From contig JBFMAF010000036.1 of the NCBI GenBank assembly GCA_040755995.1, positions 128,001 to 192,000 of the forward strand: a stretch of DNA of 64,000 nt, written 5' to 3'. The position numbers and the translations under genes are program-made. This document shows positions 2,659 to 46,779 of the stretch, one piece after another. Numbering within the stretch: position 1 is the first letter of the stretch; every line of letters starts with the position of its first letter. The notes below the pieces were generated by a model. That model made no database searches, had not been told where the DNA came from, and saw nothing but the letters and a program-made list of their open reading frames with translations. This DNA is from Acidobacteriota bacterium (lineage in GTDB: Bacteria > Acidobacteriota > CAIWXX01).

Positions 2659-4944
2659 CTACTTGATCTCGAAGCGATAGTGGTTGCTCTCCTTGCCGTC
2701 CACGATCACGCGCACCTCGCAGATACCCTTGCGGCATCGTTTGGGTATCTCGACCTTGATCGACGTGAGGCGCGCGCGTGTGATCTTGGCGAGCCTGGTC
2801 CCGAAGTACACCTTGATCTTCGATGCGTCGGCAGAGAAGTTGTTGCCGCGGATGGTAGCAGAGCTTCCGGGCTTGCTCGTCTTCGACTTGATGCGCGTTA
2901 TCGTCGGACAGCCGGGACAACCGGCTGTGACTGTGATCGTGGCTGTGGAGCTATCGGCTGTGCCGCAGGCGTTGGTGACGCGCGTCCAGAAGTACGCCGT
3001 CGCAGCCAGTGCGACAGTCGTGTACGAGCTGGAGTCCGTACCGACCGGCGTCGACGTGTCTCCGGCGAGGCCCTGGTACCACTGGTAGTGGAGAGGCGCA
3101 GTGCCTGAGGCCGTTACCGACAGGGACGCCGTCTGGCCACTCGATATCGTCTGGCTCTGCGGATCCTCTATTACGAGGGGCGCCGTACATCCGCCGCCGC
3201 CGACAGTAACGGTCGCGGTGTTAGAGTTCGCAGCGCCGCAGACATTCGTAACTCGCACCCAGAAATTCGTCGTCGCGCTGAGGGCCGCCGTCGTGTAGCT
3301 GGCCGAGTCTGTGCCGACCGGCGTGGATGTGTCACCAGCCGCGCCCTGGTACCACTGGTAGTGCAGCGGCGCGGTGCCCGAGGCGGCAACGCTGAGGGTG
3401 ACAGTCCCCCCGCTCGCGACAGTCTGGCTCTGCGGCTGCGTGGAGATCGAGGGGCATAGGCACGTCTGATCCACGAAATTGACACCCCAGAGGTTGCCAA
3501 CGGTCGTGCTATAGCCAACCGAGGTACCGACGGTCCTCGACTGATTGAGGAATATGCAGCCAGCCTTGGAGGCGCTCACGGTATATGTCCCCGCTGGGAC
3601 ATGGACCAGTGCGTAGATCCCTCTTGCGTCGCTCGTGTCTGAGTATGCACCTGCGGTCACGAGGGCGCCGCTGATCGGGTTCCCGCACCCGTCGAGGACA
3701 CGGCCGCTGAGGATTTCGCCGCCTCCGCTCACGAAAACGTTGTACACGCACTTGTAGACTTTGTTGAAGGATGGAGACGAGGTGATGTACGGAAGGTCGT
3801 ACCAGGTATCAGACGAGCCCGACCAGCCCATGTTGAGGTGGTGGTAAATCTTGCCCGAGCTGTACCCGTAGCCGTCGCACACGATCGCATGACCACCAGC
3901 CGCACCTGTGATTCCCAGGTTTACCGGCAACCCTGCATCGAGATTCGGGTTGACCATCTCGTACAACCCGTGCCCGACGAGTTCCTGGGCGCTGTTGTAA
4001 CCCGCGATTGCATTGCTGTACCCGAACCGCGAAGTCAAGGCGCCGGCAATGGCCAGAGTGTCCGCGGCTGAGCCACCGCTCTGGTACCACATGTTAACCG
4101 ATGCGCCCGTGTCGTGCGTCAGGTACCCGATGGCCCTCCTCTGGTTGTCGGGAGTCGAACCTGGCGGGTCGTACGGCATGTTGGCCCAGTCGTAGGCGCC
4201 GCCGGACCCGTCTCCGCCCATCGTGTTCTCGCTCTGCGGAGTCTGAGACGGGCCGACGTAGATGGTGTATGAGTGCACCCCGATTCCAGAAGTCGGGTGC
4301 TGATGGAATCGCATCAACTGCGACATGGCCGTGGCGACACACCCGCAAACCCAATTGTTCGGCGTGAAGTAGTTGTAGCAGAGCCCGCCACCGTCGTTGC
4401 CCTGGTTCCACCTGCTCTGCACGAACGCGTCCACCCGCGGATCGCTAGGCGATGGCACCGAGCCTAGATCCATTCCCGGACGCGCGTCCTGATTCAAGTA
4501 GCGCCGCCAGGTCTCCCTCGCATCAGATACCTCAGTCGAGTGCGCCGCCTCGGGTCCGCCCGTCTGCATCTCGCGCGCCCATCGAAGCCGGTCCGGCATG
4601 TCCGCCATCAGGAAGTCATACAGCGGATTCTGCGGATTCGGATCGATGAAGCCGTTGGCGGAGAAAGCAATTATCGGGTGGATGTAGTCGTCTGGGGCGA
4701 CCACCACGAACCCTGCCGGATCAAGCCTGACTGCATAATAGATGATTTCTCCGCCAGGGCCCTTCTCCGAATCCACGCCCTTGATGACAGCGCTCATCCT
4801 GGCGTTCAGCGGCCGCGGCGCCAGCCGCAACCACCCGGCTACGGCAGACATCGCCTGTTCCGCGCTAACCGGATCAGCCAGAACTACCGTCGCGGCACCC
4901 GCCAAGACGGTAAGAACCACAACAAGGCTAACCAGCTTCCTCAT
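2659..4944 (-). CDS. secreted C10 (streptopain/SpeB-like) cysteine protease with prodomain, CarboxypepD_reg-like domain, two Ig domains and C-terminal IPT/TIG-like domain
   Basis: Signal peptide MRKLVSLVVVLTVLAGAATVVLA; motifs GCVATAMSQLM, GGHAIVCDGY and HLNMGWSG; SD GGAGGGG before ATG at 4944. Confidence 0.9.
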   Translation of the reverse strand: MRKLVSLVVVLTVLAGAATVVLADPVSAEQAMSAVAGWLRLAPRPLNARMSAVIKGVDSEKGPGGEIIYYAVRLDPAGFVVVAPDDYIHPIIAFSANGFIDPNPQNPLYDFLMADMPDRLRWAREMQTGGPEAAHSTEVSDARETWRRYLNQDARPGMDLGSVPSPSDPRVDAFVQSRWNQGNDGGGLCYNYFTPNNWVCGCVATAMSQLMRFHQHPTSGIGVHSYTIYVGPSQTPQSENTMGGDGSGGAYDWANMPYDPPGSTPDNQRRAIGYLTHDTGASVNMWYQSGGSAADTLAIAGALTSRFGYSNAIAGYNSAQELVGHGLYEMVNPNLDAGLPVNLGITGAAGGHAIVCDGYGYSSGKIYHHLNMGWSGSSDTWYDLPYITSSPSFNKVYKCVYNVFVSGGGEILSGRVLDGCGNPISGALVTAGAYSDTSDARGIYALVHVPAGTYTVSASKAGCIFLNQSRTVGTSVGYSTTVGNLWGVNFVDQTCLCPSISTQPQSQTVASGGTVTLSVAASGTAPLHYQWYQGAAGDTSTPVGTDSASYTTAALSATTNFWVRVTNVCGAANSNTATVTVGGGGCTAPLVIEDPQSQTISSGQTASLSVTASGTAPLHYQWYQGLAGDTSTPVGTDSSSYTTVALAATAYFWTRVTNACGTADSSTATITVTAGCPGCPTITRIKSKTSKPGSSATIRGNNFSADASKIKVYFGTRLAKITRARLTSIKVEIPKRCRKGICEVRVIVDGKESNHYRFEIK
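2929..3456 (-). repeat. tandem duplication encoding two Ig-like domains (~273-nt period)
   Basis: SGTAPLHYQWYQG..GDTSTPVGTDS occurs twice; DNA ccctggtaccactggtagtg at 3071 and 3344. Confidence 0.9.
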
Positions 4945-5174: not shown

Positions 5175-5693
5175 CTACTGAAGCCCGTCGCCCGCGGCCA
5201 CGGCCTGCTCGATCGTCGACACCAGCAGAAACAGCGATCGAGCTCTGTCGGCGAGTGGCACGAATCCATGTCGGCTGTAGAAGCGGGCTGCCGTGTCATC
5301 CTTGGCTTCGGCCAGCACGGCGACAATGCCGATGTCGGTGCGGGACAGACGGGAGACTCGGAGGAGGGCATCCCTGAGGAGCGCCGATCCGAGGCCACGT
5401 CCCGATGCCGACTTGTCGACGGCGAGCCTGCCCAGGCAGGCAACTGGCACAGGATATCTTGGGCACTTTCGCCGAAGATCCGGAGGAATCGATTCGAATG
5501 CGATGCTCGCCACGCTGAGCGAGCAGAAGCCATATACACGTTCCGCATCCGACGCGACGAAAGTGCGCGAGTAGTTCTTGTCCTGCTGCTGCCTCGCGTA
5601 GAGTCTGATGAACTCGTCTAGGGCTGAATTCCCGCAGTCAAAGGAGCTCCGAATGTGGTCCCTGTTGAGGGGCTCGATCCGCCAGCCTGTCAT
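5175..5693 (-). CDS. GNAT acetyltransferase toxin (TacT/AtaT-like)
   Basis: Motifs FDCGNSALDEF, LGRLAVD..ASGRGLGSALL and FYSRHGF; overlaps the stop of the DUF1778 gene. Confidence 0.9.
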   Translation of the reverse strand: MTGWRIEPLNRDHIRSSFDCGNSALDEFIRLYARQQQDKNYSRTFVASDAERVYGFCSLSVASIAFESIPPDLRRKCPRYPVPVACLGRLAVDKSASGRGLGSALLRDALLRVSRLSRTDIGIVAVLAEAKDDTAARFYSRHGFVPLADRARSLFLLVSTIEQAVAAGDGLQ

Positions 5694-5974
5694 CGCGCCC
5701 GCACGCCCCGCAACAGCCTGCGCAACGCCTTGTTCGGTTCCGGCGGGTTCTCGATCGCCCTCAGGAAGATATCGCGATCGCGATCGCTGAGCACGATGGC
5801 CTCATGTTCGGAAAGAACGCGCCTGGCCGCGTCGCGAGCGTGTGCCAGCATGAACGCTGACAACGTGAGACCTGAGATGTCGGCTGCCCGCTCGATTTCT
5901 CCGCGGACCTGTGGGCTCAACCTGAGATCGATGCGAGCACTCCTCTGCGAGCGACGTGACGCTGACTTCGCCAT
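5690..5974 (-). CDS. DUF1778 (TacA-like) antitoxin
   Basis: RIDLRL..IERAA..LSAFML..A..I.LS.RD...F; SD AAGGAGG before ATG at 5974. Confidence 0.9.
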   Translation of the reverse strand: MAKSASRRSQRSARIDLRLSPQVRGEIERAADISGLTLSAFMLAHARDAARRVLSEHEAIVLSDRDRDIFLRAIENPPEPNKALRRLLRGVRAR

Positions 5975-6098: not shown

Positions 6099-7262
6099 TC
6101 AGTGGGATGGGTTCGAAGGTGGCGCGAGTATCTGTCCAAGCGACCGGATTGCGTCCTCGACAGGCCATACCTCGATCTCGTCCCAGTACTCGCGGTGTGA
6201 CCCACCGTAGAACAAGTAGCAGCGGGCGGACGGATAGTCCTCCTTGAAGAGGCGCAGCCCCGCCGCATCACGTCGCGAGAGCCTGGCACCCCGCTTGACT
6301 TCAATCGCGACAAGACCGCGCCGGCCGTACGCGACTATATCCACCTCTGCGCCGGTGCTTGTGCGCCAGTACGAAATCGAGTACTCCGACGCCGAATACT
6401 CGTTCATCGCGAGCAGTTCCTGCATCACGAGTGACTCTAGAGCGGCTCCTTCTATCTCCTCGGGCGTGTCCAGCGGCCCACTCGGCCTCAGCTGCCGGTA
6501 GACACCCACATCAAAGAAGTAGAACTTCGGGTGCGCAGCCATCCGCCGCTTGGCACGCCTGGTAAAGACCGGCACGCGGAAACCGAGCAGGAGGTCTTCG
6601 AGCAGGTCGAAGTGATACCCGACCGTCCTGCGATCGATCCCGGCCTCTCGCGCAATCTCAGCCGTGTTCAGCGTTGAGGCCTGGGAGAAGCTCGCCGTCT
6701 CGAGGAACCTGACGAAGGAAGCGATGTTCCTGGTCAGCCCTTCCTGCAGCACCTCCTCCCGGAGATACGTCTTGACATAGGACGCCAGGTAGTCCCGTGG
6801 CGCAGGCTCGGAGAAGATCGCAGGCATGTGCCCATAGAGCAAAGACTTTCTTAGATCGAAGTCATCTCCCAGCTCACCCGCCACCAATGGGAACATGCGA
6901 TACGTGTGCGCCCTGCCGGCCAGAAGATTCACACCGCCCCGGCGAAGTCTGCGGGCGCTCGATCCCGTCAGGACGAAACGCCATCCTCGAGCCTCGATCA
7001 TCCGGTGTACCTCGTTCAGAATCTCCGGGGCGCGCTGGACCTCATCGACCACCACCCATCCGCGATGGTTGCGCGGGACGAAGTCGGCGAGGCGCCCGGG
7101 GTGCGCGAGGAGCGACTGGTAGACATCGGCATCCAGCAGGTCGATGAACACGGCGTCACCACAGCGCTGTTTCAGCCATGTCGTCTTGCCCGTTCCACGA
7201 GGGCCGAACAGGAAAAAGCTGTGGCCCGCGGCCAGGGGTTTCGAAAGCATTCTGGCATACAT
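6099..7262 (-). CDS. AAA+ ATPase (AAA_14 + DUF4143, COG1373-like)
   Basis: Motifs GPRGTGKT, VVVDEVQ, LTGSS, PKFYFFDVG and YWRTSTGAEVD..AIEVK. Confidence 0.9.
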   Translation of the reverse strand: MYARMLSKPLAAGHSFFLFGPRGTGKTTWLKQRCGDAVFIDLLDADVYQSLLAHPGRLADFVPRNHRGWVVVDEVQRAPEILNEVHRMIEARGWRFVLTGSSARRLRRGGVNLLAGRAHTYRMFPLVAGELGDDFDLRKSLLYGHMPAIFSEPAPRDYLASYVKTYLREEVLQEGLTRNIASFVRFLETASFSQASTLNTAEIAREAGIDRRTVGYHFDLLEDLLLGFRVPVFTRRAKRRMAAHPKFYFFDVGVYRQLRPSGPLDTPEEIEGAALESLVMQELLAMNEYSASEYSISYWRTSTGAEVDIVAYGRRGLVAIEVKRGARLSRRDAAGLRLFKEDYPSARCYLFYGGSHREYWDEIEVWPVEDAIRSLGQILAPPSNPSH

Positions 7263-7412: not shown

Positions 7413-7775
7413 TCAGGTCACATACTGCCGCATGCGTTCGGCCTCTTTGCGCAGCGAGTCGGCTTCGCGTCGATGCGTCTCGGCCTCCACTTTCCAGCGT
7501 TCAACACTGTCCTGGTCAGATGGCGACTGTGTGGTTGCGTAGCGCTCGGCAGAACGCACTGCTGCTGCATCGGCTTCTCCGGCGAGCACCTCGGCTTCCT
7601 TGGCCTTCTTCTCCGCCTCGTCCGCAAGCTGGAGATAGCGCTGCGCCTCGGCTTCGTTCGGCTCCCTACCGCCCTCTCGCGCGAACGCCCGCTCCAGCAC
7701 TCCTCCGACCTCCTCCTGCGTCCGCGTGTCAGCAGGCCGAAAGCGCCCGGAATCGTCCCTATCTGGATCGTCCAT
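7413..7775 (-). CDS. hypothetical charged helical protein (120 aa)
   Basis: Last gene of the co-oriented cluster; A/E/R-rich; carries the RFRxAxxxTxxExxxxLxRAF motif. Confidence 0.7.
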   Translation of the reverse strand: MDDPDRDDSGRFRPADTRTQEEVGGVLERAFAREGGREPNEAEAQRYLQLADEAEKKAKEAEVLAGEADAAAVRSAERYATTQSPSDQDSVERWKVEAETHRREADSLRKEAERMRQYVT

Positions 7776-7831
7776 TGTTCATCTTCCCAGGTTGGAGCCA
7801 CCGAGTGCTGCGGGTAACGGCCTCACCGGCG

Positions 7832-8551
7832 CTAGTCCTTCTTGACATCGGCGGCCTCATCGGGCTTCTCGTAGCCCTTCTTCTCGGCTACCTCTTCGAC
7901 GCCCCACGTCCGGATCTCGCCGGCCTCTCGTCGCTTTTCCCAGGCCTCGTCACCCTTCTTGTCAGCCTCTTGACGCCACGCGTCCGCGTCTTTCTGCCGA
8001 GTCTCGGCCGTCTCCTTCAGACTATCCGCGTCCCACTTGTCCTTGGCGATTTCAGACCGCGTCCCAGCCGCCTCAGCCTGCAAGTCAGCGCGCTCGGCCC
8101 TGTGCCCCGCCTCCTCCTTGCGGTACTCTGATGCCTCCGCCTGGCGGTCCGCCGCCTGGGCCGCATAGTAATCCTTGTCTTCTTTGGACTCTGCACGCTC
8201 CGCCTGCCACTTTGCGTCGGCAGCTGAGTCGTCCTTGCGCTTGGCGTACCACTCATCCCAATCCGCGTCCTGCTTCTTGTGCCCCGCCTTGTACTCATCC
8301 CAGTCCGCCTTCTCCTTGGCGGCCCGGTCATCCACGGTGTCGGCCCACTTGCCCACCGCCTCCTCCGAATCCTTGCGGTCCTTCGGCGGCTCCTCCTTCG
8401 GCTTGTCCCAATCCAGGGCCTTTTCGACCTCCTTCTTCGTCTCCGGCGTGGCCTCGGTCTTGGCTTCCGTCTTCGCCTCGCTGGTACTCGTCGATTCGGC
8501 TTTCGCTTCCGTCGACGACGTGGTGCTGCTTTCCGACGTCTCTTCGGCCAT
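7832..8551 (-). CDS. hypothetical highly charged Trp-periodic helical protein (239 aa)
   Basis: SD GAGGTG; S/T/E-rich N-terminus followed by A/E/K/D-rich helical repeats with periodic W/Y. Confidence 0.8.
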   Translation of the reverse strand: MAEETSESSTTSSTEAKAESTSTSEAKTEAKTEATPETKKEVEKALDWDKPKEEPPKDRKDSEEAVGKWADTVDDRAAKEKADWDEYKAGHKKQDADWDEWYAKRKDDSAADAKWQAERAESKEDKDYYAAQAADRQAEASEYRKEEAGHRAERADLQAEAAGTRSEIAKDKWDADSLKETAETRQKDADAWRQEADKKGDEAWEKRREAGEIRTWGVEEVAEKKGYEKPDEAADVKKD

Positions 8552-8586
8552 GTGTCACCTCTCTGAGAAGTCCTCCGTGCTATGTC

Positions 8587-8775
8587 CTATGTCTTTCGTG
8601 CTGCGTCACGCTCGGGCTCGGGAAATGCCCTCGCAAGCGCCTGCTCGGTCTCCGACCGCGTCTCGTTCGGCGCCGCCCTGAAGCGAGCTTCATCGACCTC
8701 GCCGATCTTCTCGACGGCCTTGTCCGATTCCCGCACCGCCTCCTGTGTGATGTCCATGCTCCCCGGATTCGGCAT
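8587..8775 (-). CDS. hypothetical small acidic protein (62 aa)
   Basis: Strong SD GGAGGA; begins 16 nt after the ATPase stop; carries the RFRxAxxxTxxExxxxLxRAF motif. Confidence 0.7.
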   Translation of the reverse strand: MPNPGSMDITQEAVRESDKAVEKIGEVDEARFRAAPNETRSETEQALARAFPEPERDAARKT

Positions 8776-8790: not shown

Positions 8791-11700
8791 CTAGGCGGTG
8801 GTCGCGCGGCCCGGTCCGTCTGCCACGCCCTGGAATCCTTGCAGCACGTGCGGCCGCTGCGCCCCCGAGTTGACCAGGTAGCAGAACGCCAGCGGGTGAA
8901 TGTGCTGTGGCGAAACCTCGAACGGTGCCACATCCTGCGCCATCCGCTGCACGACCTCCACCAGGCGGCCGAAGTTGTTCACGAATCCAGGTCGCTCCGC
9001 GGCCTCCTTCAGTCGATCGGCGAGAAGCTGCGCCTTCGGCGCAAGATCCCGTTGTACCACGAACCCGTACCAGCACTGCCGCCGGCAGAACCGGCATCCA
9101 GGCTCGATGCGTCTGGGCTGCACCGCCACCTGCCCTCGGAGTTCCTCCAGGAACGCGACGATCTGGTCGGCCGTTTGTGGTGTTGTCGGGCCCTCGTTCA
9201 TGAGCCCTGAAACGGCTCCGGAGAACAGCTCCTCCAATCGGAGATACGATCGGAAGCTGCCGAGGCCTCCGCGATAGTACCCGTGCCATTCCTTCAACGC
9301 GAGATGCGCCGTCTGGACGATATTGCAGAACAGGACGCCGGGCGCGGGCTCGACGCCGCCGAGGCGCTTGCGCAGAGCATTGAGAAGCGTCGCGCGCGTC
9401 CGCGCCCACTCCGCTTTCGCCGCCGGCGGCGAGCCCGCCATCAGGCTCGCGATGAAGTTATGGCATGCCTCGTAGCCGGCGGCATCGGGGGCGTTTGCAT
9501 CGGACAGGTACATGCAGGGGGAATCGCAGGGGGCGCACCCGGGCCACCGTCGGTATATATCACGCACTGTGTCTTGAAACGCAGTCATACGCTTTCGCAG
9601 TCCCTCGCGCCCGATGTCCCGCATGAACTGTTCGCGCAGGTTGTCCTTGACGCCGTACACCTGCAGCAAGATCGGCTTGTCCAGGAATTCGTTGTGGACC
9701 ACGGCCTGGCCCACACGCAACCGCACCACGTGCTCCTTCTGTTCCTGCGTCAGGTTCATGGCATTGCCCACCGACTGCCGGTCGTCTTCCGCGACGATAC
9801 GGTGCAGGATCTTGAGATTGGTGTTCTTCAGAACGTCCGGAGTCAGCTTGGCCGGCACCTGATCCACGATGATGAACCCCTCGCCGTACTCACGGATCTC
9901 GGCCAGAATATCGGAAAACATCTCCACGGCCTTCCCGCGCGGGTTGGCGGACTCGGCACTGAGCGCGGGCGGGATGTTCTTGAGGAGCCGGTGGGACTCC
10001 TCGATCAGCGTGATGTGCTGCAGGCCGCCGCCGTAATGCCGGGCAGTCTCGCAATACTCGTAGAGGTTTATCAGGAGCAGCGCCATGAGGAAGGCCTTCT
10101 CTGCATCATCCCCCACGTTCTTGAGCTCCATCACGGACGGCTTGCCGAAGAGCAGCTCCGCAGGGTATGAGTTGCGCGTGTTCAACATCGATCCCTTGCC
10201 CGCGATCAGGAGACTCTTGATGCGTGCCTTCAAAGCCGCCGAGATATCCATGCTCAGCTGCTGTGCGTATTTCTTCCGTTCCACGACGACGTCGATCTGG
10301 CGGTACAGGTCCTCGATCGTCGGCAGATACGGCACGTAGTCGTCCTTCGATGCGTCGATGAAGCGATTCTCCGAGCGGGAGAGGTCCCATCCCCGGTCTG
10401 TGTAGACGTCGAGGACCGCTTCCTCGAGGATGTACGGCATAGAGGCGTACATCGGGAAGCTGGCATTGAATACCGCCTTGAGCAGATCGATGTGGGTGAG
10501 CAGAGGGTAGCCGCGGGCGAAATGGAACGGGTTGAGGCGAAACGGGGACGTGGTCTCGTCCCCGAGTGTGAACACCTGCAGCTCGCGTCCCATCACAGGG
10601 TCCGCCAGCAAGACCCTGTACTCGGTCTTGGCCGGCTCGATCACCAGAAACGGCACCTGCTCGCGTTCGTATGCCACCCGCAACAACGCCAGACATGTAT
10701 TGGTCTTGCCCGCCCCCGTAATCCCGGTGATGAAAGTGTGCTTCGTCAGGCTTTTCGGTGGAACGTAGAAACGATCCGGCAGGACCTCGCCCCTGTAGAT
10801 CACCTGACCCAGCGCAAACCCTTCGGCAGCCGGTGGGTTGAGACCGAAGTCGGCGATTGGCGTCAACCGAATCCCAGGAACCTCCTCGCGCGGCATCCCC
10901 ATCACCAGCGACAGCTCGACGGTATTCAACGGAGTCGCGAGCTTGTGATAGATGGGTCCCAGCGGATGAGGAGCCTGTTCCGGGAACTGGATCTCGGGAT
11001 TGCGGAATTGCATGAGCGAGTCGCGGAGCGCCTCGTCATGCGCGCTCATATCGATCGACCGCAACGGTTCAAAATATGTCTCCTCACCCGACAGCACAGC
11101 CCGGACGACACCCTGTCCGCGATGCAGCGTGTTCTCGTTCTCAGCAAGAAGGAAGGTGCCGACATTCCACAGGCCGGAATTCTTGCCGTCCTGCAGGCGC
11201 TCCACGTACCGGTCCAGCAGCGACTCGCAGAACGCCGCAGTCTTGTTGAGAATCTCACGGCTGATGCCGCGCGTGCGCTGCTCGGACGTCGTGTCGGTGC
11301 GACCCATCGAGAACCCGGCACCCCCGACCACGGCGCTCAGGATCGGGCTGGCCGCTCCGAGCAGCGGACCGAACCCGAGCATGCCTCCGAGCAGCGTGGC
11401 CCCGCCGACGATGAGGCCGCCGCCGAGCGACCCGCCTTTCTGGTCGGCCCGCGAGGTCGTCTGTCCGATGGAGTCGCTCATGGTGCCGCGGACGTAAGCA
11501 TGAATCTCGGAGCTCAGCTCGCGGCACCTCTGGATCACCTCGTCGACCGTCGGCTCGCGAATCGGTTCGGCGATCACCACCAGGCAGTACTGCTCGCCGC
11601 GCAGGCTGTTGGCCAGCCGTTCGAGCCCCTGGACAAACACATCCTTCGACCCCTCTTTCAGCGACGGAATCCCGGTGATCGCGCCGATCCGCCGCAGGCT

Positions 11701-12174
11701 GGCGATGGGACGCAGCAGTTCCAGCGAGACATCGCGCGGCCCGAGCGAGCTCAGGCGAATGCCTGGGTAATTGCCGTGCAGAGCGCTGTCCAGGACTTCG
11801 ATCAGGTCGGCCGTGTGCTCGTGGCTGGCGGCATCCGACTTGTACAGGCCCATGTAGAGCTGCGTGCGATGCCCCTCGCTCCCGACCACGAACGCCAGCG
11901 AGTGAGAGCCGTCGCGGAACGAGCTAATCACGTTCTGCATGTTCAGGGCGTGAAGGCTCCGGCTCACGTCCGGCGAATGCGCAACTTCTGTGATCCGAAG
12001 GAACCGCAGGTTTGCCATCAGATTCGCGTCGGGCTTGACCTGTACCAGCCCGAAGTCGGGGACGCCGGGGAGGTAGCGCCGCTCGAGCGCCGTCAACAGG
12101 CTCTGACTTAGAGCGCTGTCGGACAGAGCCATCATCTGGCCATGGGGTCCTGCTACCTGCAAAGGCATATCCAC
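8791..12174 (-). CDS. large HerA/VirB4/FtsK-superfamily ATPase (DUF87-like)
   Basis: KHTFITGITGAGKT (Walker A), HITLIEESHRLL (Walker B), EIREYGEGFIIVDQVP and NTNLKILHR. Confidence 0.85.
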   Translation of the reverse strand: MDMPLQVAGPHGQMMALSDSALSQSLLTALERRYLPGVPDFGLVQVKPDANLMANLRFLRITEVAHSPDVSRSLHALNMQNVISSFRDGSHSLAFVVGSEGHRTQLYMGLYKSDAASHEHTADLIEVLDSALHGNYPGIRLSSLGPRDVSLELLRPIASLRRIGAITGIPSLKEGSKDVFVQGLERLANSLRGEQYCLVVIAEPIREPTVDEVIQRCRELSSEIHAYVRGTMSDSIGQTTSRADQKGGSLGGGLIVGGATLLGGMLGFGPLLGAASPILSAVVGGAGFSMGRTDTTSEQRTRGISREILNKTAAFCESLLDRYVERLQDGKNSGLWNVGTFLLAENENTLHRGQGVVRAVLSGEETYFEPLRSIDMSAHDEALRDSLMQFRNPEIQFPEQAPHPLGPIYHKLATPLNTVELSLVMGMPREEVPGIRLTPIADFGLNPPAAEGFALGQVIYRGEVLPDRFYVPPKSLTKHTFITGITGAGKTNTCLALLRVAYEREQVPFLVIEPAKTEYRVLLADPVMGRELQVFTLGDETTSPFRLNPFHFARGYPLLTHIDLLKAVFNASFPMYASMPYILEEAVLDVYTDRGWDLSRSENRFIDASKDDYVPYLPTIEDLYRQIDVVVERKKYAQQLSMDISAALKARIKSLLIAGKGSMLNTRNSYPAELLFGKPSVMELKNVGDDAEKAFLMALLLINLYEYCETARHYGGGLQHITLIEESHRLLKNIPPALSAESANPRGKAVEMFSDILAEIREYGEGFIIVDQVPAKLTPDVLKNTNLKILHRIVAEDDRQSVGNAMNLTQEQKEHVVRLRVGQAVVHNEFLDKPILLQVYGVKDNLREQFMRDIGREGLRKRMTAFQDTVRDIYRRWPGCAPCDSPCMYLSDANAPDAAGYEACHNFIASLMAGSPPAAKAEWARTRATLLNALRKRLGGVEPAPGVLFCNIVQTAHLALKEWHGYYRGGLGSFRSYLRLEELFSGAVSGLMNEGPTTPQTADQIVAFLEELRGQVAVQPRRIEPGCRFCRRQCWYGFVVQRDLAPKAQLLADRLKEAAERPGFVNNFGRLVEVVQRMAQDVAPFEVSPQHIHPLAFCYLVNSGAQRPHVLQGFQGVADGPGRATTA

Positions 12175-12175
12175 C

Positions 12176-14056
12176 TCACTTCTTGAGCTGGGTCACGGCA
12201 CAGATCGCCAGCCCCCTGGCGATCGTCTCCTCCGGGTTCGGCGCAAGAATCGGCGGGCGGTCGAGAGCCGCGCGCACGGCGTCGCCCGCGAAGTACCACC
12301 GCGCACTCCCGCCCGCCAGGATGACATGATCCAGGTGCACGGGCCTGAAGCCGATCCTTCCCGGGGCCTCGACGAGCGCATCCTGCAGCTGCTTGCGTGC
12401 CTCGGTCAGGAGCTGGTCCATCTCGACACGCGTCATTGAGATGCGCGTCGGTGGATCGCCCGCCGGAATGACGCAGTACTGGACATGCTCATTCCGTCCC
12501 TCGGCAAACGACCTCGACGCCTCTTCCTTGAAATCGCGCGCCAGCAGGGCGAGCGCGCGATGGTCCTCGTCCGAGAGCTCCAACTGCAGATGCTGGAGCA
12601 ACCAGTTCTCGATCATCATGTCAAACCACATGCCGCCCAGAGGAAGCTCCGTGTGATCGATCACGACCGGAGGCGACCCTTCGCCGCGTATCTCCACGAA
12701 CGAGATGCCCAGACCCTGGCTGCCCCAATCGAGCACCATCGCGTGCTCGGTGTCTCGGGGCGCCTTCTGGAGATGGAACGCCGCCGCGGCGAGAGGCTCG
12801 GGCACGAGCATTGCCAGCGGGAATCCGGACTGCTCAACCACCTCTGCCAACGCTTGCATGCGTTCCTCGGGCCAATCGGGCGGCACACCAAGAGCCGTCG
12901 CCGCGCCCTCGTGAGAATCAACCGAGCCCGGCCCGAGCACCTCGACCAGACGATAGCACAGCATCGTGAGAAAGCTGCGTGCCGCCTGAGCCGCCTCGCC
13001 CGAATCAGCTCCAATCTCGCCTGCGAATCCCAGGCTGACCTCATCCGGCGCCTGCGGCCACAGGCCCAGTGCGGCCTGGCCGAACAGGTCGGCGGAGCCC
13101 CCGGCGGACAGCTTCACGGCTGACGGGACCATCGTGCGCGCATCGAAGCGCACGAAGTCGGGCGGCGCGAGCAGGCGCCGGCCGTCGGCGCGGGCGTAAG
13201 CCAGGTAGGAATAGCCGCGACCCAGCGCGAGCCCAGTGATCGTGCGCGCGCCTCGCCGAGCCGGACGCTCACGATGCACACGGGCCAGACTCGAGAGGTT
13301 CCTCTGGGGTTCGGGTTTCGGCGGCCGCGCCTGAGCCGGCGTCGGGGACGGCGCCGGCGCTTGCACCTGCACAACGGCGCCGGCTCCAACCAGAGCCGCC
13401 CGAAGCCGCTCCGCGACCTCAAACGACAACTCCACGGCCAGCAGCACCGGCGCGCTCGCGACGAATGCGCTCGCGTCAGAGGGATTGAGGCCGAGGACCT
13501 GCCGGAGCGCGACGATGACACGCGGCCGATATGGGCCCGCAGAGACGAGCGTTATGTTGTATCCGGTCTGAGCGGCCGGCACCGGCGCCGCTGGAGACGC
13601 TGCGATCGCCGGTGGAGCTTGAGGCTGCACCACAGGCGCCGACCTTGGTGCAGCTGGTTGTCCCGGCGTGTGTTGCGGTGGAACCGAGGCGGCCGGTTGT
13701 TGTCCAGACGTCGGCGCCACAGGTACGGCAGCAAGCGCGGCGGGAGCTCGGACCGGTGGTGACTGCCGCTGGACCGCGGGCGCGGCCACAACGGGAGCCG
13801 CTGGAGGTTGCGCTGCAGCTGTTGCCGGGGCGCGATCAGTAGACATAGTCGGAGCCGCGGTCGCTGCGGCAACGGTTGGGGTTGCAGTCGGCGCGGGCGA
13901 TTTGAGAGTTGCAGGGGTTGGCGGATCCGGCGGCCCTGCGGGCTCTCCCGCGTCGGCGCGCTCTCCGCATTTCTGGCAGAAGCGCCCTTCAGGTGGCAGT
14001 TTCGAACCACAGCTAGTGCAAAATCTCGACGGCGGATTCTTCGCGTTCTCAGGCAT
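12176..14056 (-). CDS. zinc-ribbon + Pro/Ala linker + ribosomal L7/L12 C-terminal-like + Hsp70-like nucleotide-binding domain protein
   Basis: FCTSCG..FCQKCG; YNITLVSAG..VIVALRQVLGL..A..FV.SAP..L..AGAVVQV; GVPPDW, VPEPLAAA, VLDWG, ILAGGSAR and PEETIARG. Confidence 0.8.
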   Translation of the reverse strand: MPENAKNPPSRFCTSCGSKLPPEGRFCQKCGERADAGEPAGPPDPPTPATLKSPAPTATPTVAAATAAPTMSTDRAPATAAAQPPAAPVVAAPAVQRQSPPVRAPAALAAVPVAPTSGQQPAASVPPQHTPGQPAAPRSAPVVQPQAPPAIAASPAAPVPAAQTGYNITLVSAGPYRPRVIVALRQVLGLNPSDASAFVASAPVLLAVELSFEVAERLRAALVGAGAVVQVQAPAPSPTPAQARPPKPEPQRNLSSLARVHRERPARRGARTITGLALGRGYSYLAYARADGRRLLAPPDFVRFDARTMVPSAVKLSAGGSADLFGQAALGLWPQAPDEVSLGFAGEIGADSGEAAQAARSFLTMLCYRLVEVLGPGSVDSHEGAATALGVPPDWPEERMQALAEVVEQSGFPLAMLVPEPLAAAAFHLQKAPRDTEHAMVLDWGSQGLGISFVEIRGEGSPPVVIDHTELPLGGMWFDMMIENWLLQHLQLELSDEDHRALALLARDFKEEASRSFAEGRNEHVQYCVIPAGDPPTRISMTRVEMDQLLTEARKQLQDALVEAPGRIGFRPVHLDHVILAGGSARWYFAGDAVRAALDRPPILAPNPEETIARGLAICAVTQLKK

Positions 14057-14202: not shown

Positions 14203-14943
14203 CTACCCTGCGGGGCTGCCGCAGTGGTCGCAGAATCTGGCGTCCGCGTGGAGCTCGTGCCCGCAGGTGAAGCACCTCTTGGATGCCGCGGCCCCGCATG
14301 CGTTGCAGAACTTCGAGCCGGGTTGCAGCGGCTGGCCGCACTGAACGCAGGCCACCGGGCCTGCTGCAACTCCCGCCTGACCTGGCGACCCCATGGTGAC
14401 TGGCGGAGGTGGCCTGACAGGGCCATGTGGTGCGCCAGGTTGCCCCTGAGCGGAGCCGAATGCTTGCGGGCCCTGAAACGGCGCCTGGGACGCGCCGAAG
14501 CTGGGAGCCGTGCTGAATCCGGGGGCGGCGCCGGCGGGCGAGCCGCCGAACGCGGAGTTCGTCCTCACGTACTCCTCGATGAAACGCCATGCTTTGGTCT
14601 GCAACTGCGACTGCTGGTAGGCCCCGACCCCCGCCGTGATCAGCGCAGGGAAGAAGACGATGGCTCCCACGCCGGCCACGACACCCTTGTCAGCCCACTT
14701 CGCTCCTCCCATCTCGACACTCACGTACTCGCCTTCCAGGCCGATCATGGCCGTCAGAGCGGACGACATCCCGGCGATCTTGCGGAGTGTGTCTTCTTTG
14801 CGTGCCTGGACGGTCAAACCGCCGTTCGGCGCCGGCATGATCTGAGTCTGATACCCGTCCCTGGCGAACCATTCCGTGAGCGATTGGGCCAGTGCCTGCA
14901 TGTCAATGTCGGGGCCGTAGAAGTGGCGCTTCTCCATGGGCAT
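14203..14943 (-). CDS. double zinc ribbon (DZR) protein with hydrophobic Gly-rich segment
   Basis: C-terminal CVQC/CNAC/CFTC/CDHC; segment GVVAGVGAIVFFPALITAGVGA; SD GGAGG. Confidence 0.85.
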   Translation of the reverse strand: MPMEKRHFYGPDIDMQALAQSLTEWFARDGYQTQIMPAPNGGLTVQARKEDTLRKIAGMSSALTAMIGLEGEYVSVEMGGAKWADKGVVAGVGAIVFFPALITAGVGAYQQSQLQTKAWRFIEEYVRTNSAFGGSPAGAAPGFSTAPSFGASQAPFQGPQAFGSAQGQPGAPHGPVRPPPPVTMGSPGQAGVAAGPVACVQCGQPLQPGSKFCNACGAAASKRCFTCGHELHADARFCDHCGSPAG

Positions 14944-15012: not shown

Positions 15013-15672
15013 TCAGAAGAACACCGAGTCCGAGACCTTCTCTCCGCGATTGACGCGCTCGGCCACCTTGTATCCATCGAACGCGCAGGCCACCGCAAAT
15101 ACCAACCCCAGCAGCATCCACAGCGAGAAGATGCCGGGATTCGTCAACACCATCTGCTCCTGGCCGAACATGTCCATCATCGGAGTGTAGGCACCCCTGA
15201 GAATGACGAACGACGCGATCCACCAGACGGCGAGTTGAATCGCCCCTTTCTTCATCTGTCCGTTATAGAAGGCCTGCGCCCCGAACCCGCCTAGAAAGAA
15301 CCCCAGCGCCGCAGCTACGCCCTGGCTCTTCCGCTTCGAGACCGGCTGCGCCGGGTAGTATCCTGGCGGATAGGCGCCCGGTGCCTGCGCCGGTGGAGGG
15401 CCGTACGGTTGAGGCGCCTGTGGTGGTGCATAGGGCACCCCGACGGGCGGCTGGCTCGGCGGGTACTGCGGAATTGCGGGTGGCGGCGCCTGAGGCGGCT
15501 GGTAGTACTGTCCACCTGGGTAGGCAGAGGTGGGAGGTGGAGCCTCTGACTGCGGCGGGGCCGGAGCGATCGGAGGCTGTGGACTCGGAGCGGCGGCGAC
15601 GGGTGCACCGCAGGACATACAGAAGCGAGCATCATCGGCATTCTTGGTCCCGCACTGACTGCAGAATGGCAT
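15013..15672 (-). CDS. zinc-ribbon + Pro-rich + TM2/NINE membrane protein
   Basis: MPFCSQCG..FCMSCG; KSQGVAAALGFFLGGFGAQAFYNGQ (TM2 signature); SD GAGGTG. Confidence 0.85.
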   Translation of the reverse strand: MPFCSQCGTKNADDARFCMSCGAPVAAAPSPQPPIAPAPPQSEAPPPTSAYPGGQYYQPPQAPPPAIPQYPPSQPPVGVPYAPPQAPQPYGPPPAQAPGAYPPGYYPAQPVSKRKSQGVAAALGFFLGGFGAQAFYNGQMKKGAIQLAVWWIASFVILRGAYTPMMDMFGQEQMVLTNPGIFSLWMLLGLVFAVACAFDGYKVAERVNRGEKVSDSVFF

Positions 15673-15986
15673 AGGATCACCTCTTCAGAGTATTGTCGAG
15701 TGGAGTTTCGAAGCAGACCCGCGGGTCCTCACGCCGGCTTGCGGCGCCAGGGCAGGCGATCGACCGGACGCGCTCGCGGCGAGCCTTGCGGGTAGCCGGC
15801 ATAGCGCCCAAGATAGGCGTGCCCGGCGCCGTTGTCAAGCCCGCTGCGCGCAGGAGAACGGAAGAGGCGAGTGGCAGCCTGCCCATCGGCCTTTCATGCA
15901 GCTCGCCTGGCCGTCACGTGCGTTCGACACGGGCCCGCGTCGTTCATCACATTGCACGGCGCGCGAAGGCGGCTCCATCGTATGGT

Positions 15987-43470: not shown

Positions 43471-43518
43471 CTCAACTCGTGGCACCGTGTGGCGCCGCGT
43501 GATATACAATGCGGATGC

Positions 43519-46500
43519 ATGGTGCCAGCATTGCGCATTTGGGTCTATGTCTTCCTCGTCCTCCTGGCGCTCGGCTGGGCCCCGGCCAGATGCGAGTCGC
43601 CTCGCCCCCAGACGCAGAAGGGTGCGGCTGCCAGCGACAGAGGCCAGTTCACCAACGCCAGCGGCGCGGAACTGGTCACGCTGCTCTCGGATGAGGCCAC
43701 ACGGGCGCGTGCCTATCACGAGCTCTGCCGGAGGGCCGATCCCAAGACGGAAGCCGACTCCGATCGTTTCTGCGGCTCGCACAGAAATCCAGAGGTCGTC
43801 GTGTGTCCGCAGGAGGGAAGTAGACCACCTGTCTACGTCGTGCTGAGCGAGTTCCTCACACCGCATCAACCCTCAGGCCGTTTCGGGCGCCTGGGTGCCA
43901 AGGTGCCCGAAGTACCATGGCCGGAGCTGCGGCGGCGCAAGACCCTCCTGATCGACACATACTCATTCGACGGGAGCCCCCTGCACCCGTTCCCCTGCAA
44001 CGATAACGCACTCGACGGAATCATGCTGGACATGAATCGCGACGGATTTGTCGAGCGTGCAAACGACATCCGCCTGGGAGGATACTCGGCCAGCAATGTA
44101 GAAGTGTTCAAGGTGGAGCGAATGGGCGAACTGGCGGAGGTTCGACTCGCTGTGCTCTACAACTGGGGCGAACACGATGACTGGGACTACGCTTTCTCTG
44201 ATCGCGAGGAGGACGGATACGTGGAGGTGGACTTCGGTCCGCTGACTGAGAATGGCGTCATGCCGGAAGTCACCTTCCGCTGGAACGAGAAGAGCAAGAG
44301 CTGGGAGGGCCCGCCGTCCGGCCTGGGTGGTCATCTCGTGTTGTTGGACCCCGCTGACATCCGGGGCGAGATCGACCGTCTTGCCGCCACACGCGAGCCG
44401 TTTGAGGAAGATCCCGATGCCCTGCCGGGGTCTGATCGCTGGTCGGTTCGTGAGACGGGGTCGCTTCCGTGGGGATGGGCCAGGTTCAAGGCCGCTTCGC
44501 AGCCCTATCGGTACGCGTCCCTGAAGGCTCTCTCGGACGAGCAGATTCTCGAGTACATGGGCGAAGCGAAGAGCGTGGACGACCTGGAGCGGGATTCGGT
44601 TATAGCCACCAACATACCCGCGAGCATATGGAACATGGGCGCCAGGGAAGCTGCGCTCGCGGTGGCGAACGCGAACCGGGTTCCCGAGCATCGCGAGGCG
44701 TATGAATTCATCATCGATGCGATGGGGGGCCTGGAGCCGCCCGTTTCCTGCTCCATCGCTTTCTCCGTTCATGCGGCGCATTCGGCCCTGGAGAGGAGCT
44801 ACTTTCTGCGCTGCCATCCGGGTGGTTCTTACATGGTCTATGCGGGCGTCGTCTTGTGTGGCGCCCCGGCATACGATTCCACGTGCACGGGTCGGGAGTA
44901 TGACCTTCGGGTCTGCCTGCTTACGTATGACGAGGCAAGGACCGCCGCGCACACCCTGTGGTGGCTCAACCACGGACGTACGTCACCACCAGGAGAGGCC
45001 GCTGATTCGTACGGGGTTTGGTCGACGGGCGACGGCACGGCAACGCTCCAATGGCTGGGTGAGGATGGACAACTCGAGTGGAGGGTCACCGACTGGCTGG
45101 GCGGGCCGGTTTCGCAACGGTGGACCACGAGCTTCGGCGATGAAGAGTTGATCGGTATCGCCGGCGAGATGTTCGAGGAGGCGCTGCCAGCCAGGCTGGG
45201 CGAGCGCTGGTCGGGGTACAAGGGAATCCCGCTCCCGTACGCGTGCCTTGGGTCGAAGAACCTCAATGTGACACAAGAGCTGCTCAACCAGATCCACGAC
45301 CAGTCGCGACGCATACTTGCGATGTTCTCAATCCCACAAACGCGCGTCTCGTACAAGATCGTGCAGGAGGCGGTTCGGGCGGCGGGCGACCATGCCTTCA
45401 TCGACCTGCTCCCGCGGCTGCGCGTGATGCTGCGCGGGCTGCCGGCACCGTTCGGGCCGGTGCGAGATGAGTGCGCCGTCGAGAAGGAGATCGACGCGTT
45501 GGAGGCCGATGGATCGGCGGCCACACAAGAGCGAGTCTCTACGCTGTACGACGAGATCTCGGCGATCAGGCACGGGGCATTCGAAGCGGCGGCGATCGAG
45601 ACGCTGAGATCGAATCTCAACGAATCGATCCAACGAATCCTCTGTGCCCGCGATACACGGGCACTCTATGACTGGGCTGTCTCTGAGCGGGAAGGGCATG
45701 AGTGGGCCATGTCGATGCTCTTCTATGCGGGCCGGGGGAGACACATAGACGCACTGGAGAAGCGGTTCGACACGGAGGATCCGCCACACAAGGCCTCGAC
45801 ACTTGCTGCGCTCAGCTTGTTGGACAAACGTCGCTGCCTCAAACTCGCGCGGCGCGTCCCCGCAGACTCGGAGGACATCGTCGGGGCTGCCGCTCTTTCG
45901 ATCCTGGCTATGGCCGGGCCCGTGCCCGACGAGAATCGGCGCGTGGCCGCGCTTCTCCGAGGGCTGCTCGATCCTCGAAGAGATGCGGCCTTCCGGGAGA
46001 GCGTCCTGTGGTATCTGGTGCCTATGGGCGATCCACTCAAGTTCAAGAACCCAGAGATCGACGCCACCCTGCTCGCCATGCTTCGAGCGAAACCTGCCAT
46101 GTTCCCTGAAGGGTCCACAAGGCCGGCCGCGGCTCGTGCCCTCTACATGCGCACAGGGATGCGACACTTCGACCCGTTCGTAGAGGCGTTGGACCCCGAT
46201 CTCATGAGCGAGTATCGAGATCTCTTGAATCTCTTGGCTTGGATGACGCCCGAAGCCACCATGGAGCAACGCGCGAAACTGACGGAAGCGATCCGCCCGG
46301 AGTTCACGAGGACGCACGGGGCGCTTGACGAGATCCTCTTGACGGTCTGGGCCGCGGATCTGCGAGATCTCAAACCTGACATCGAGCGGATCGCCACCTC
46401 GGGGCCGGAAGACATCGAGGGAAGCAGGGGAGCCGCTTGGTCCTCCGGCGCGACAGTCCTGCGTGATCGATACCACATGGCGCGCCGCGTCGCGGCCATG

Positions 46501-46779
46501 TGGAACGAAGAAGAGCCCCTCACACGATTGAAGCTGCTGCTAGCGTTTGCACTGCAAGAGACCTACCTGTTCGGATCCTCTGATCCCTCAATGAACCTTC
46601 GCGTGGCGAGGCTCCGACAGCAGATTGAAGCCGATTCGAAGCGGCTAGCGCAGGAACAGCGACAGGAGCTGATCGCATTCATGCGTTGGTGCTGCGAGAT
46701 GCGCCCCGCAAGCGAATGGGAGTCACCGCCGAAACAGAGCGACATCGTGAGAATAGCCGGGTGGTCGCTAGAGAAGTAG
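43519..46779 (+). CDS. large secreted hypothetical protein with helical-repeat C-terminal half
   Basis: 3.2-kb ORF; signal peptide WVYVFLVLLALGWAPARC; DMNRDGFVE Ca-loop-like motif. Confidence 0.75.
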   Translation: MVPALRIWVYVFLVLLALGWAPARCESPRPQTQKGAAASDRGQFTNASGAELVTLLSDEATRARAYHELCRRADPKTEADSDRFCGSHRNPEVVVCPQEGSRPPVYVVLSEFLTPHQPSGRFGRLGAKVPEVPWPELRRRKTLLIDTYSFDGSPLHPFPCNDNALDGIMLDMNRDGFVERANDIRLGGYSASNVEVFKVERMGELAEVRLAVLYNWGEHDDWDYAFSDREEDGYVEVDFGPLTENGVMPEVTFRWNEKSKSWEGPPSGLGGHLVLLDPADIRGEIDRLAATREPFEEDPDALPGSDRWSVRETGSLPWGWARFKAASQPYRYASLKALSDEQILEYMGEAKSVDDLERDSVIATNIPASIWNMGAREAALAVANANRVPEHREAYEFIIDAMGGLEPPVSCSIAFSVHAAHSALERSYFLRCHPGGSYMVYAGVVLCGAPAYDSTCTGREYDLRVCLLTYDEARTAAHTLWWLNHGRTSPPGEAADSYGVWSTGDGTATLQWLGEDGQLEWRVTDWLGGPVSQRWTTSFGDEELIGIAGEMFEEALPARLGERWSGYKGIPLPYACLGSKNLNVTQELLNQIHDQSRRILAMFSIPQTRVSYKIVQEAVRAAGDHAFIDLLPRLRVMLRGLPAPFGPVRDECAVEKEIDALEADGSAATQERVSTLYDEISAIRHGAFEAAAIETLRSNLNESIQRILCARDTRALYDWAVSEREGHEWAMSMLFYAGRGRHIDALEKRFDTEDPPHKASTLAALSLLDKRRCLKLARRVPADSEDIVGAAALSILAMAGPVPDENRRVAALLRGLLDPRRDAAFRESVLWYLVPMGDPLKFKNPEIDATLLAMLRAKPAMFPEGSTRPAAARALYMRTGMRHFDPFVEALDPDLMSEYRDLLNLLAWMTPEATMEQRAKLTEAIRPEFTRTHGALDEILLTVWAADLRDLKPDIERIATSGPEDIEGSRGAAWSSGATVLRDRYHMARRVAAMWNEEEPLTRLKLLLAFALQETYLFGSSDPSMNLRVARLRQQIEADSKRLAQEQRQELIAFMRWCCEMRPASEWESPPKQSDIVRIAGWSLEK

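Follow-up and report, generated by a model that had tools for sequence, protein, structure and literature searches.

The locus described here raises the question of what purpose is served by a short motif that recurs near the N-termini of three small proteins (p62, p239 and p120) encoded next to a HerA/VirB4-type ATPase. It lies in a window of 64,000 nucleotides, meaning the whole stretch of DNA that was analyzed, from an Acidobacteriota bacterium (contig JBFMAF010000036.1). A preliminary description had proposed that the motif is a docking or secretion signal read by the adjacent ATPase, analogous in role to T7SS signals, or otherwise a processing site. Docking gained support from conservation of the motif in two phyla, its co-occurrence with one form of the ATPase tail and a controlled co-fold, while the T7SS likeness survives as an analogy only, and a processing site found no support, with no protease family among the locus genes scanned. 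We assign a probability of roughly 0.6 to the reading that the motif is an N-terminal docking helix on the ATPase tail, likely marking proteins for ATP-driven export in an undescribed polymorphic-effector system.

The ATPase operon and its small proteins

The genes run on one strand in the order Zn-ribbon/TM2, double-Zn-ribbon, Hsp70-like, DUF87 ATPase, p62, p239 and p120 (Table 1), with the Zn-ribbon/TM2 gene as the probable first gene of the operon. Two promoter matches were found in the region against 1.1 expected, so a match by itself carries no evidential weight. The locus has no gene recognizable as a dedicated channel or outer-membrane component, and the window no recognizable immunity gene. 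In many related loci (designated here by L numbers) the ATPase gene is immediately preceded by an Hsp70-like gene, and the Hsp70-like protein of the window may be inactive, since its phosphate-loop motifs, compared by eye, are degenerate where those of the Synergistota and Verrucomicrobia loci are intact; the corresponding protein has an FHA domain in L087, L094 and L099. Other upstream neighbors in related loci include a double-GTPase-like gene with a 511-aa partner ahead of the Hsp70-ATPase-toxin run (L013:1793-6041), dynamin-like genes (L070) and GrpE/DnaK/DnaJ-like genes (L037, L038, L040, L049). Directly downstream of p120 in the window are a TacA-GNAT toxin-antitoxin pair and an AAA_14/DUF4143 ATPase matching PADLOC PDC-S01 (5175-5971 and 6099-7262, minus strand), and elsewhere in the window are a C10 peptidase with Ig and TIG domains (2659-4944, minus strand) and a 1096-aa reading frame with no Pfam match (43489-46779, plus strand).

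Table 1. Features of the ATPase locus, ordered by position in the window.
Feature	Position	Strand	Remarks
p120	7413-7775	-	120 aa; motif, then helical region
Motif in p120	7683-7745	-	residues 11-31; best conserved block of the p120 family
p239	7832-8551	-	239 aa; disordered acidic N-terminus, then motif helix (residues 37-45), then bundle
Motif variant (core) in p239	8408-8452	-	residues 34-48; LxW end
p62	8587-8775	-	62 aa, acidic; little beyond leader and motif
Motif in p62	8623-8685	-	residues 31-51; predicted ATPase-binding helix
HerA/VirB4-type ATPase (DUF87)	8791-12174	-	1127 aa; Walker A and B intact
ATPase C-terminal domain	8821-9573	-	residues 868-1118; two tandem Cys4 helical repeats
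Repeat 2 groove, predicted motif receptor	8845-9054	-	ATPase residues 1041-1110
ATPase motor domain	9637-10842	-	residues 445-846
Ser/Thr/Gly-rich hairpin with hydrophobic glycine-rich tip	11260-11481	-	ATPase residues about 232-305; low confidence in monomer model
Zn-ribbon, L7/L12-like and Hsp70-like nucleotide-binding-domain protein	12176-14056	-	
246-aa protein, hydrophobic segment and C-terminal double Zn ribbon	14203-14943	-	clade-conserved
Zn-ribbon and TM2 membrane protein	15013-15672	-	orthologue in L006
Sigma-70-like promoter match	15810-15838	-	upstream of the gene run

All three small reading frames and their motif peptides are present as previously described, and they are likely real genes because substitutions relative to the L006 orthologues pile up at third codon positions (18/17/34 at positions 1/2/3 in p62, 40/33/77 in p120 and 73/54/135 in p239). 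Possible roles for p62 are those of a decoy, a regulator or a minimal substrate. In p239, which sits in the slot held by toxins in related loci, residues 71-216 are predicted to form a three-helix up-down bundle (pLDDT about 98); its fold as colicin Ia (Z 11.2) or BAR (Z about 10) was rejected, both matches being generic and scoring lower than helical bundles can through their arrangement alone, and Foldseek returned no match at E<=0.001. Pfam gave neither a recognizable toxin domain nor a WXG100-type match in p62, p120 or p239, and an Atlas search returned nothing usable for p120. A fusion of p120 to other cargo was also rejected, since nothing beyond extended helical variants and what seem to be deletion fusions turned up among 18 representatives.

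The motifs of p62 and p120 align without gaps at 10/21 identities and both have Asp at -3, as first reported. RFR and Asp(-3) belong to these two proteins and not to p239, and Asp(-3) is not constant among p120 orthologues; the ending of the pattern RFRxAxxxTxxExxxxLxRAF likewise does not extend to p239, whose helix closes with LxW, not LxxAF. The "acidic disordered stretch" said to precede the motif also needs amending, in that the N-terminal part of p62 is partly conserved (an ERIGEVDEAR block) and not just disordered. In a six-frame scan of the 7.7-Mb genome (137,403 stretches), only the p62 and p120 reading frames match the strict pattern, and the p239 core, AxxxTxxExxxxL, has 185 matches. 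Shuffle tests gave p=0.018 for the likeness of p62 and p120 (0.051 with window shuffles), whose ten identities were matched by 2/300 shuffles, p=0.068 for p62 and p239, with the p239 core alone not significant, and p=0.008 for a weak likeness between the helical parts of p120 and p239. Profile-profile comparison of the p120 and p62 families yielded E=6.7e-4 at a probability of 27%, and that of p62 with the p239 family E=0.13. The single-genome evidence is thus weak to moderate, and the claim of a common motif is carried by the orthologue families. A profile search of 4730 reading frames found no further motif-bearing gene in the genome (best background score at most 16.6, vs 39.8 for p239), and tblastn detected no paralogue of p62, p239, p120 or the ATPase. 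A recent duplication from p120 to p62 was rejected, as DNA identity over the p62/p120 segment is 42/84.

In the monomer model of the ATPase (pLDDT 83, pTM 0.68), the best structural matches of the motor are the C-terminal domain of VirB4 (Z 33.6, rmsd 3.0, 353 residues aligned) and DndH-C (Z 33.2), followed by HerA (Z 28.4) and TrwB (Z 24.6), and the closest solved motors include DNA translocases. Its tail is read as two Cys4 helical repeats (probability 85%, E 7e-6). Over one alignment span, the hairpin insert falls into two size groups, with 94-323 residues (40 homologues) and 35-64 residues (63 homologues), and it resembles a barrel or ruler of adjustable length. In Synergistaceae the insert is lengthened by Ser/Thr-rich repeats to 323 residues (ATPases of L010, L013, L017 and L022 were noted), and the glycine-rich hydrophobic tip is retained in many. 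The N-terminal part matched unnamed clusters in the Atlas, with DUF8128 as a lead only, at 0.85. The family occurs in Acidobacteriota, Chloroflexota, Synergistota, Verrucomicrobiota, Lentisphaeria and gut metagenomes, with a patchy spread (6/401, 33/401 and 6/301 genomes), and a motor tree (FastTree, midpoint root) puts the window ATPase in the long-hairpin group, beside the Synergistota and Verrucomicrobia/Lentisphaeria toxin clades. Upstream of one short-insert ATPase (L167:4342-6538) are helical proteins of 88-326 aa with central WxD motifs recalling WXG100, of which the two scanned had no Pfam match.

Conservation of the motif and its predicted receptor

Related loci were retrieved from genomes (26 loci), from metagenomes (the best 80 of 527 loci) and from further searches. 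Orthologues of p239 and p120 lie 3' of the ATPase in the Bryobacteraceae-type loci L001-L005 and in L006, and p120 is kept beside the ATPase where a C39 peptidase gene replaces p239 (L008) or where the gene order is altered (L007, in which the p239 and p120 orthologues precede the module instead). Orthologues of p62 were found in L006 and in L122, a locus of the class Anaerolineae (Chloroflexota), where a 55-aa protein mixes p239-like and p120-like residues (EAPTEVKAQVDETLVRAF) and bridges the p239 form and the p62/p120 form of the motif.

Leave-one-family-out profiles, trained on two families and scored on the third, picked the motif as the best site in 5/5 p62, 17/19 p120 and 8/8 p239 proteins, and at that site 5, 11 and 7 of them, respectively, reached p<0.05 against 300 shuffles; these p-values overstate the significance, given a hand-set register and related sequences. 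This test left out 7 of the 18 p120 representatives (fragments, fusions, one near-duplicate and one divergent sequence), one chimeric p62 match, and two p239 homologues that the anchor pattern missed and in which the motif is visible on inspection. Following an acidic leader, the consensus is about [PE]Ax[PD]ET[KQR]xE[VLI][DEG]x[ATVI]Lx(RAF|W) in three families with dissimilar C-terminal parts, where it forms a conserved island amid variable N-termini. The profile search near homologous ATPases that had been proposed at the outset therefore came out in favor of the motif, which is conserved beside ATPases in two phyla.

The motif is clade-specific and not family-wide, a family-wide motif being rejected because the toxins of Synergistota, Verrucomicrobia/Lentisphaeria and the gut clades have other leaders. 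Full repeat 2 (at least 40 bits) is present in 13/133 ATPases, and a motif-bearing neighbor in 11 of these 13 loci, the remaining two being the lowest-scoring ones. Held-out acidic neighbors matched the core at p<0.01 in 3/8 cases within this repeat-2 clade vs 3/208 elsewhere; the three are a protein of 83 aa and the zincin-type proteins of L009 and L081. The motif was not detected in three candidate cargoes of the same clade (the L008 C39 peptidase, an L028 zincin and an L032 nuclease), and across 1093 locus proteins non-training matches were no commoner than background.

Some further features of these loci were recorded. A conserved protein of 106-115 aa and of no known family adjoins the zincin-type proteins in p120-less loci (L009:3083-3403, L028:10331-10666, L081:1449-1796) and is possibly an alternative accessory factor. 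Small acidic proteins and one zincin have in common a GGPE(R/F)G-like C-terminal tail (L009:2808-3059, L028:10659-11483, L169, L172, L181). Apparent deletion or frameshift fusions (L025:7993-8929; P0080, P0089, P0053) join the N-terminal part of the ATPase to p120, the Hsp70-like end to p120, or the Hsp70-like protein to the ATPase start, and the module seems to decay through internal deletion.

A receptor for the motif is suggested by co-folding, in which ATPase residues 436-1120 were paired with p62, the only one of the three small proteins used as partner. The ipSAE of this pair was 0.73, while the highest value among three controls was 0.00. The mark applied is passed by 116/157 solved complexes and 2/215 mismatched pairs, counts that are only rough when a prediction uses its own alignments. 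Runs agreed in at least 93% of contacts, with a partner pLDDT of at least 63. Confident contacts of p62 fall at residues 24-27, 31-36, 39-40 and 42-54, and those of lowest error (F32, A35, T39, E42, T43, A46, L47) include positions conserved across families, while the ATPase contributes residues 1041-1071 and 1102-1110 of tail repeat 2. The co-folding suggested in the preliminary description thus places the p62 motif on the C-terminal domain, which supports binding without showing it. This predicted docking fits three independent patterns, namely the co-occurrence with repeat 2, the existence of standalone tail genes and the correlation between leaders and tails (see below), and we regard docking of the motif on the ATPase tail as very probable. 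In five sister loci the ATPase itself has no tail beyond the motor, and the tail is encoded by the next gene downstream (E 4e-12 to 7e-8). These standalone genes encode 207-242 aa (L093, L094, L097, L099, L104), and four of the five loci have long acidic downstream proteins with a different N-terminal tag of their own, of about 45 aa, in common.

Toxin neighbors, proposed mechanism and alternatives

That the docked proteins are exported is suggested by the toxin-immunity neighbors of related ATPases. A nuclease toxin recognized by Pfam follows the ATPase, or is its first large neighbor, in 25 related loci, mostly with an immunity gene, and these toxins are acidic proteins ending in LHH, WHH/colicin-DNase or NS_2 nuclease domains. 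Such toxins follow 18/40 long-hairpin ATPases with a complete N-terminus vs none of the 45 short-insert loci scanned (of 63), and in 14 of the 18 long-hairpin toxin loci the toxin is followed by a SUKH or YezG immunity gene (DUF6985 in two more). PMC3113570 and PMC3482391 tie the pairing of nuclease toxins with SUKH/YezG immunity to exported polymorphic toxins, and the latter paper gives a constant leader with a swapped toxin domain as their mark; both this arrangement and the adjacent immunity gene are found in the related loci. Among the closest pairs within a clade, leaders are 45-88% identical while the toxin domain changes, as in L013/L018, which have different nucleases behind leaders 70% identical over residues 1-76, and in L075/L077 (87.5%) and L021/L050 (80%). 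Pfam identified no trafficking domain in the leaders, and the toxins scanned had no WXG/LXG Pfam match. More generally, an acidic protein (D+E at least 17%) is encoded first after the ATPase in 68/114 loci, vs 182/957 neighbors overall.

The leaders also vary with the ATPase tail. Over 300 pairs from 25 toxin or toxin-slot loci, leader similarity correlates with tail similarity at rho 0.55 (0.69 among 72 close pairs) and with motor similarity at rho 0.29 (0.45 among the same close pairs), coefficients that are overstated because the locus pairs are kin and non-independent; toxin domains track neither tail nor motor (0.02 and 0.06). In L013 and L017 the motors are 94% identical, the tails have diverged and the leaders are unrelated.

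Taken as a mechanism, the acidic leader would keep the N-terminus unfolded, and the motif helix is predicted to bind repeat 2 of the Cys4-helical tail, which may be an exchangeable adaptor, so that each ATPase clade would read its own leader. The motor, presumably a hexamer as in the FtsK/HerA superfamily, could then thread the docked protein from its disordered N-terminus, with help from the Hsp70-like neighbor, and, more speculatively, six Ser/Thr/Gly hairpins might form a conduit through the envelope. Provided that docking holds, we consider export probable, whereas we entertain the hairpin as a channel only tentatively. For the window locus we take p239, which has no recognized activity, as the likely cargo. 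The docking site would probably also be used by p120 and p62 in accessory or regulatory roles; they could be accessory subunits or regulators, and may be competing ligands.

The main rival to export accepts that the motif docks and keeps the machine inside the cell, with the ATPase holding, unfolding or releasing tagged partners (toxin, antitoxin and decoys) as a stress- or phage-triggered switch, in the manner of HerA-based defense complexes. HerA defense and DNA-translocase complexes are indeed among the top fold matches of the motor, and the patchy spread over genomes, the TacA-GNAT pair and PDC-S01-like ATPase just downstream, and the failure to recognize a channel gene in the locus are all consistent with such a switch. 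The PADLOC HerA matches are all partial, however, and the LHH, WHH and NS_2 nucleases with their SUKH/YezG immunity genes, together with the occurrence of nuclease toxins after long-hairpin ATPases and after none of the short-insert ones scanned, argue for delivery, which leaves the switch unlikely in our estimation. We find it distinctly improbable that p62, p239 and p120 are structural or gating subunits clipped to the tail, with the motif as an assembly site and the true substrates using other signals: retention of p120 where p239 is replaced, the lack of cargo in p62 and the three candidate cargoes without a detectable motif would suit such subunits, but in L009 and L081 the motif stands ahead of zincin-type domains as well, p239 is found where related loci have their toxin, and in sister clades the toxins' own leaders track the tail. 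Least probable is a likeness unrelated to the ATPase, whether the relic of an old duplication or chance among acidic helical proteins. The marginal pairwise p-values, the weak likeness of the p120 and p239 helical parts and the low profile-profile probabilities would accord with it; a conserved island in variable N-termini of two phyla, the low DNA identity of the p62/p120 segment, and a co-fold that passes against its controls by way of the motif residues speak against it.

Returning to docking for export, the ATPase family would give the interbacterial LHH, WHH and NS_2 toxins of environmental and gut bacteria a missing delivery route, because these toxins stand beside the ATPases without a recognized export domain. 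A bolder extension, which we think rather unlikely, would be a new secretion class built around one gene, that of a hexameric HerA/VirB4-type ATPase. Its Ser/Thr/Gly hairpins would assemble into a beta-barrel needle that can vary in length and inserts its tip into a membrane, and its exchangeable tail would recognize an N-terminal helix, particular to each clade, on polymorphic toxins and other cargo. If this were true, the motif of the window would be the first signal of this class for which a receptor is predicted, and if the hairpin is the channel, it would to our knowledge be the most compact protein secretion machine known. With a signal of about 20 residues and a named receptor groove, the idea is directly testable.

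Relation to known systems

The open full-text literature that was searched yielded no description of this system, and PMC7159879, PMC9503650 and PMC10853773 deal with other systems. The best NCBIfam match of the ATPase is NF033849 (ser_rich_anae_1), which likewise comprises large ATPase-like proteins with a serine-rich region and under whose name no paper was found. All NCBIfam scores are far below cut-off, with 96.9 bits for the window ATPase and 78-163 bits for seven relatives vs the NF033849 cut-off of 650, and by these scores the family of the window ATPase is a sister of NF033849, not a member. A DUF87/HerA motor is common to the HerA systems (HerA-NurA, Sir2-HerA, HerA-DUF4297, DndH, CedD), but the window ATPase adds an N-terminal region of about 430 aa with the hairpin and a tail of about 250 aa, and no NurA, Sir2 or DUF4297 partner was matched by PADLOC or Pfam among the operon genes.

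Two secretion systems come closer in the way they select their substrates, although the ATPase/motif system belongs to neither T7SS nor T4SS, because it has one motor domain, no WXG100 and no VirB6. The tandem FtsK domains of T7SS are missing, with a single motor domain at residues 445-846 in place of three; WXG100 (PF06013) had no match in the genome (99.84% complete; a control was positive in 3/14), nor did EccB/D/E or EssA/EssB/EsaA among the seven locus genes scanned. The motor fold is of the VirB4/VirD4 type, as in T4SS, and VirB6/TrbL (PF04610) had no match in the genome, with no virB genes recognized in the locus. As in T7SS (EccC/EssC/YueA, with WXG100, LXG and LDXD substrates; PMC3113570), the ATPase of the related loci is an FtsK/HerA-superfamily member that has polymorphic nuclease toxins and their SUKH/YezG immunity genes as neighbors. 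According to PMC6954902, a short peptide signal is read in T7SS by the C-terminal ATPase region through subtype-specific pockets, LxxxMxF being recognized on EccCb1 ATPase3; in the window the signal is near the N-terminus, after an acidic leader, and its predicted receptor is a Cys4-helical tail where T7SS uses a RecA-fold pocket. In the bacteria-killing T4SS of Xanthomonas, an alpha-helical accessory domain of an ATPase recognizes the effector tag, the all-alpha domain of VirD4 binding XVIPCD (PMC8740702). That tag is a C-terminal domain of about 120 aa, whereas here it is an N-terminal helix of about 20 aa, with its predicted site on the C-terminal tail and not on an all-alpha insert. By analogy, then, the mode of recognition proposed here would work like the reading of T7SS signals and of XVIPCD by VirD4.
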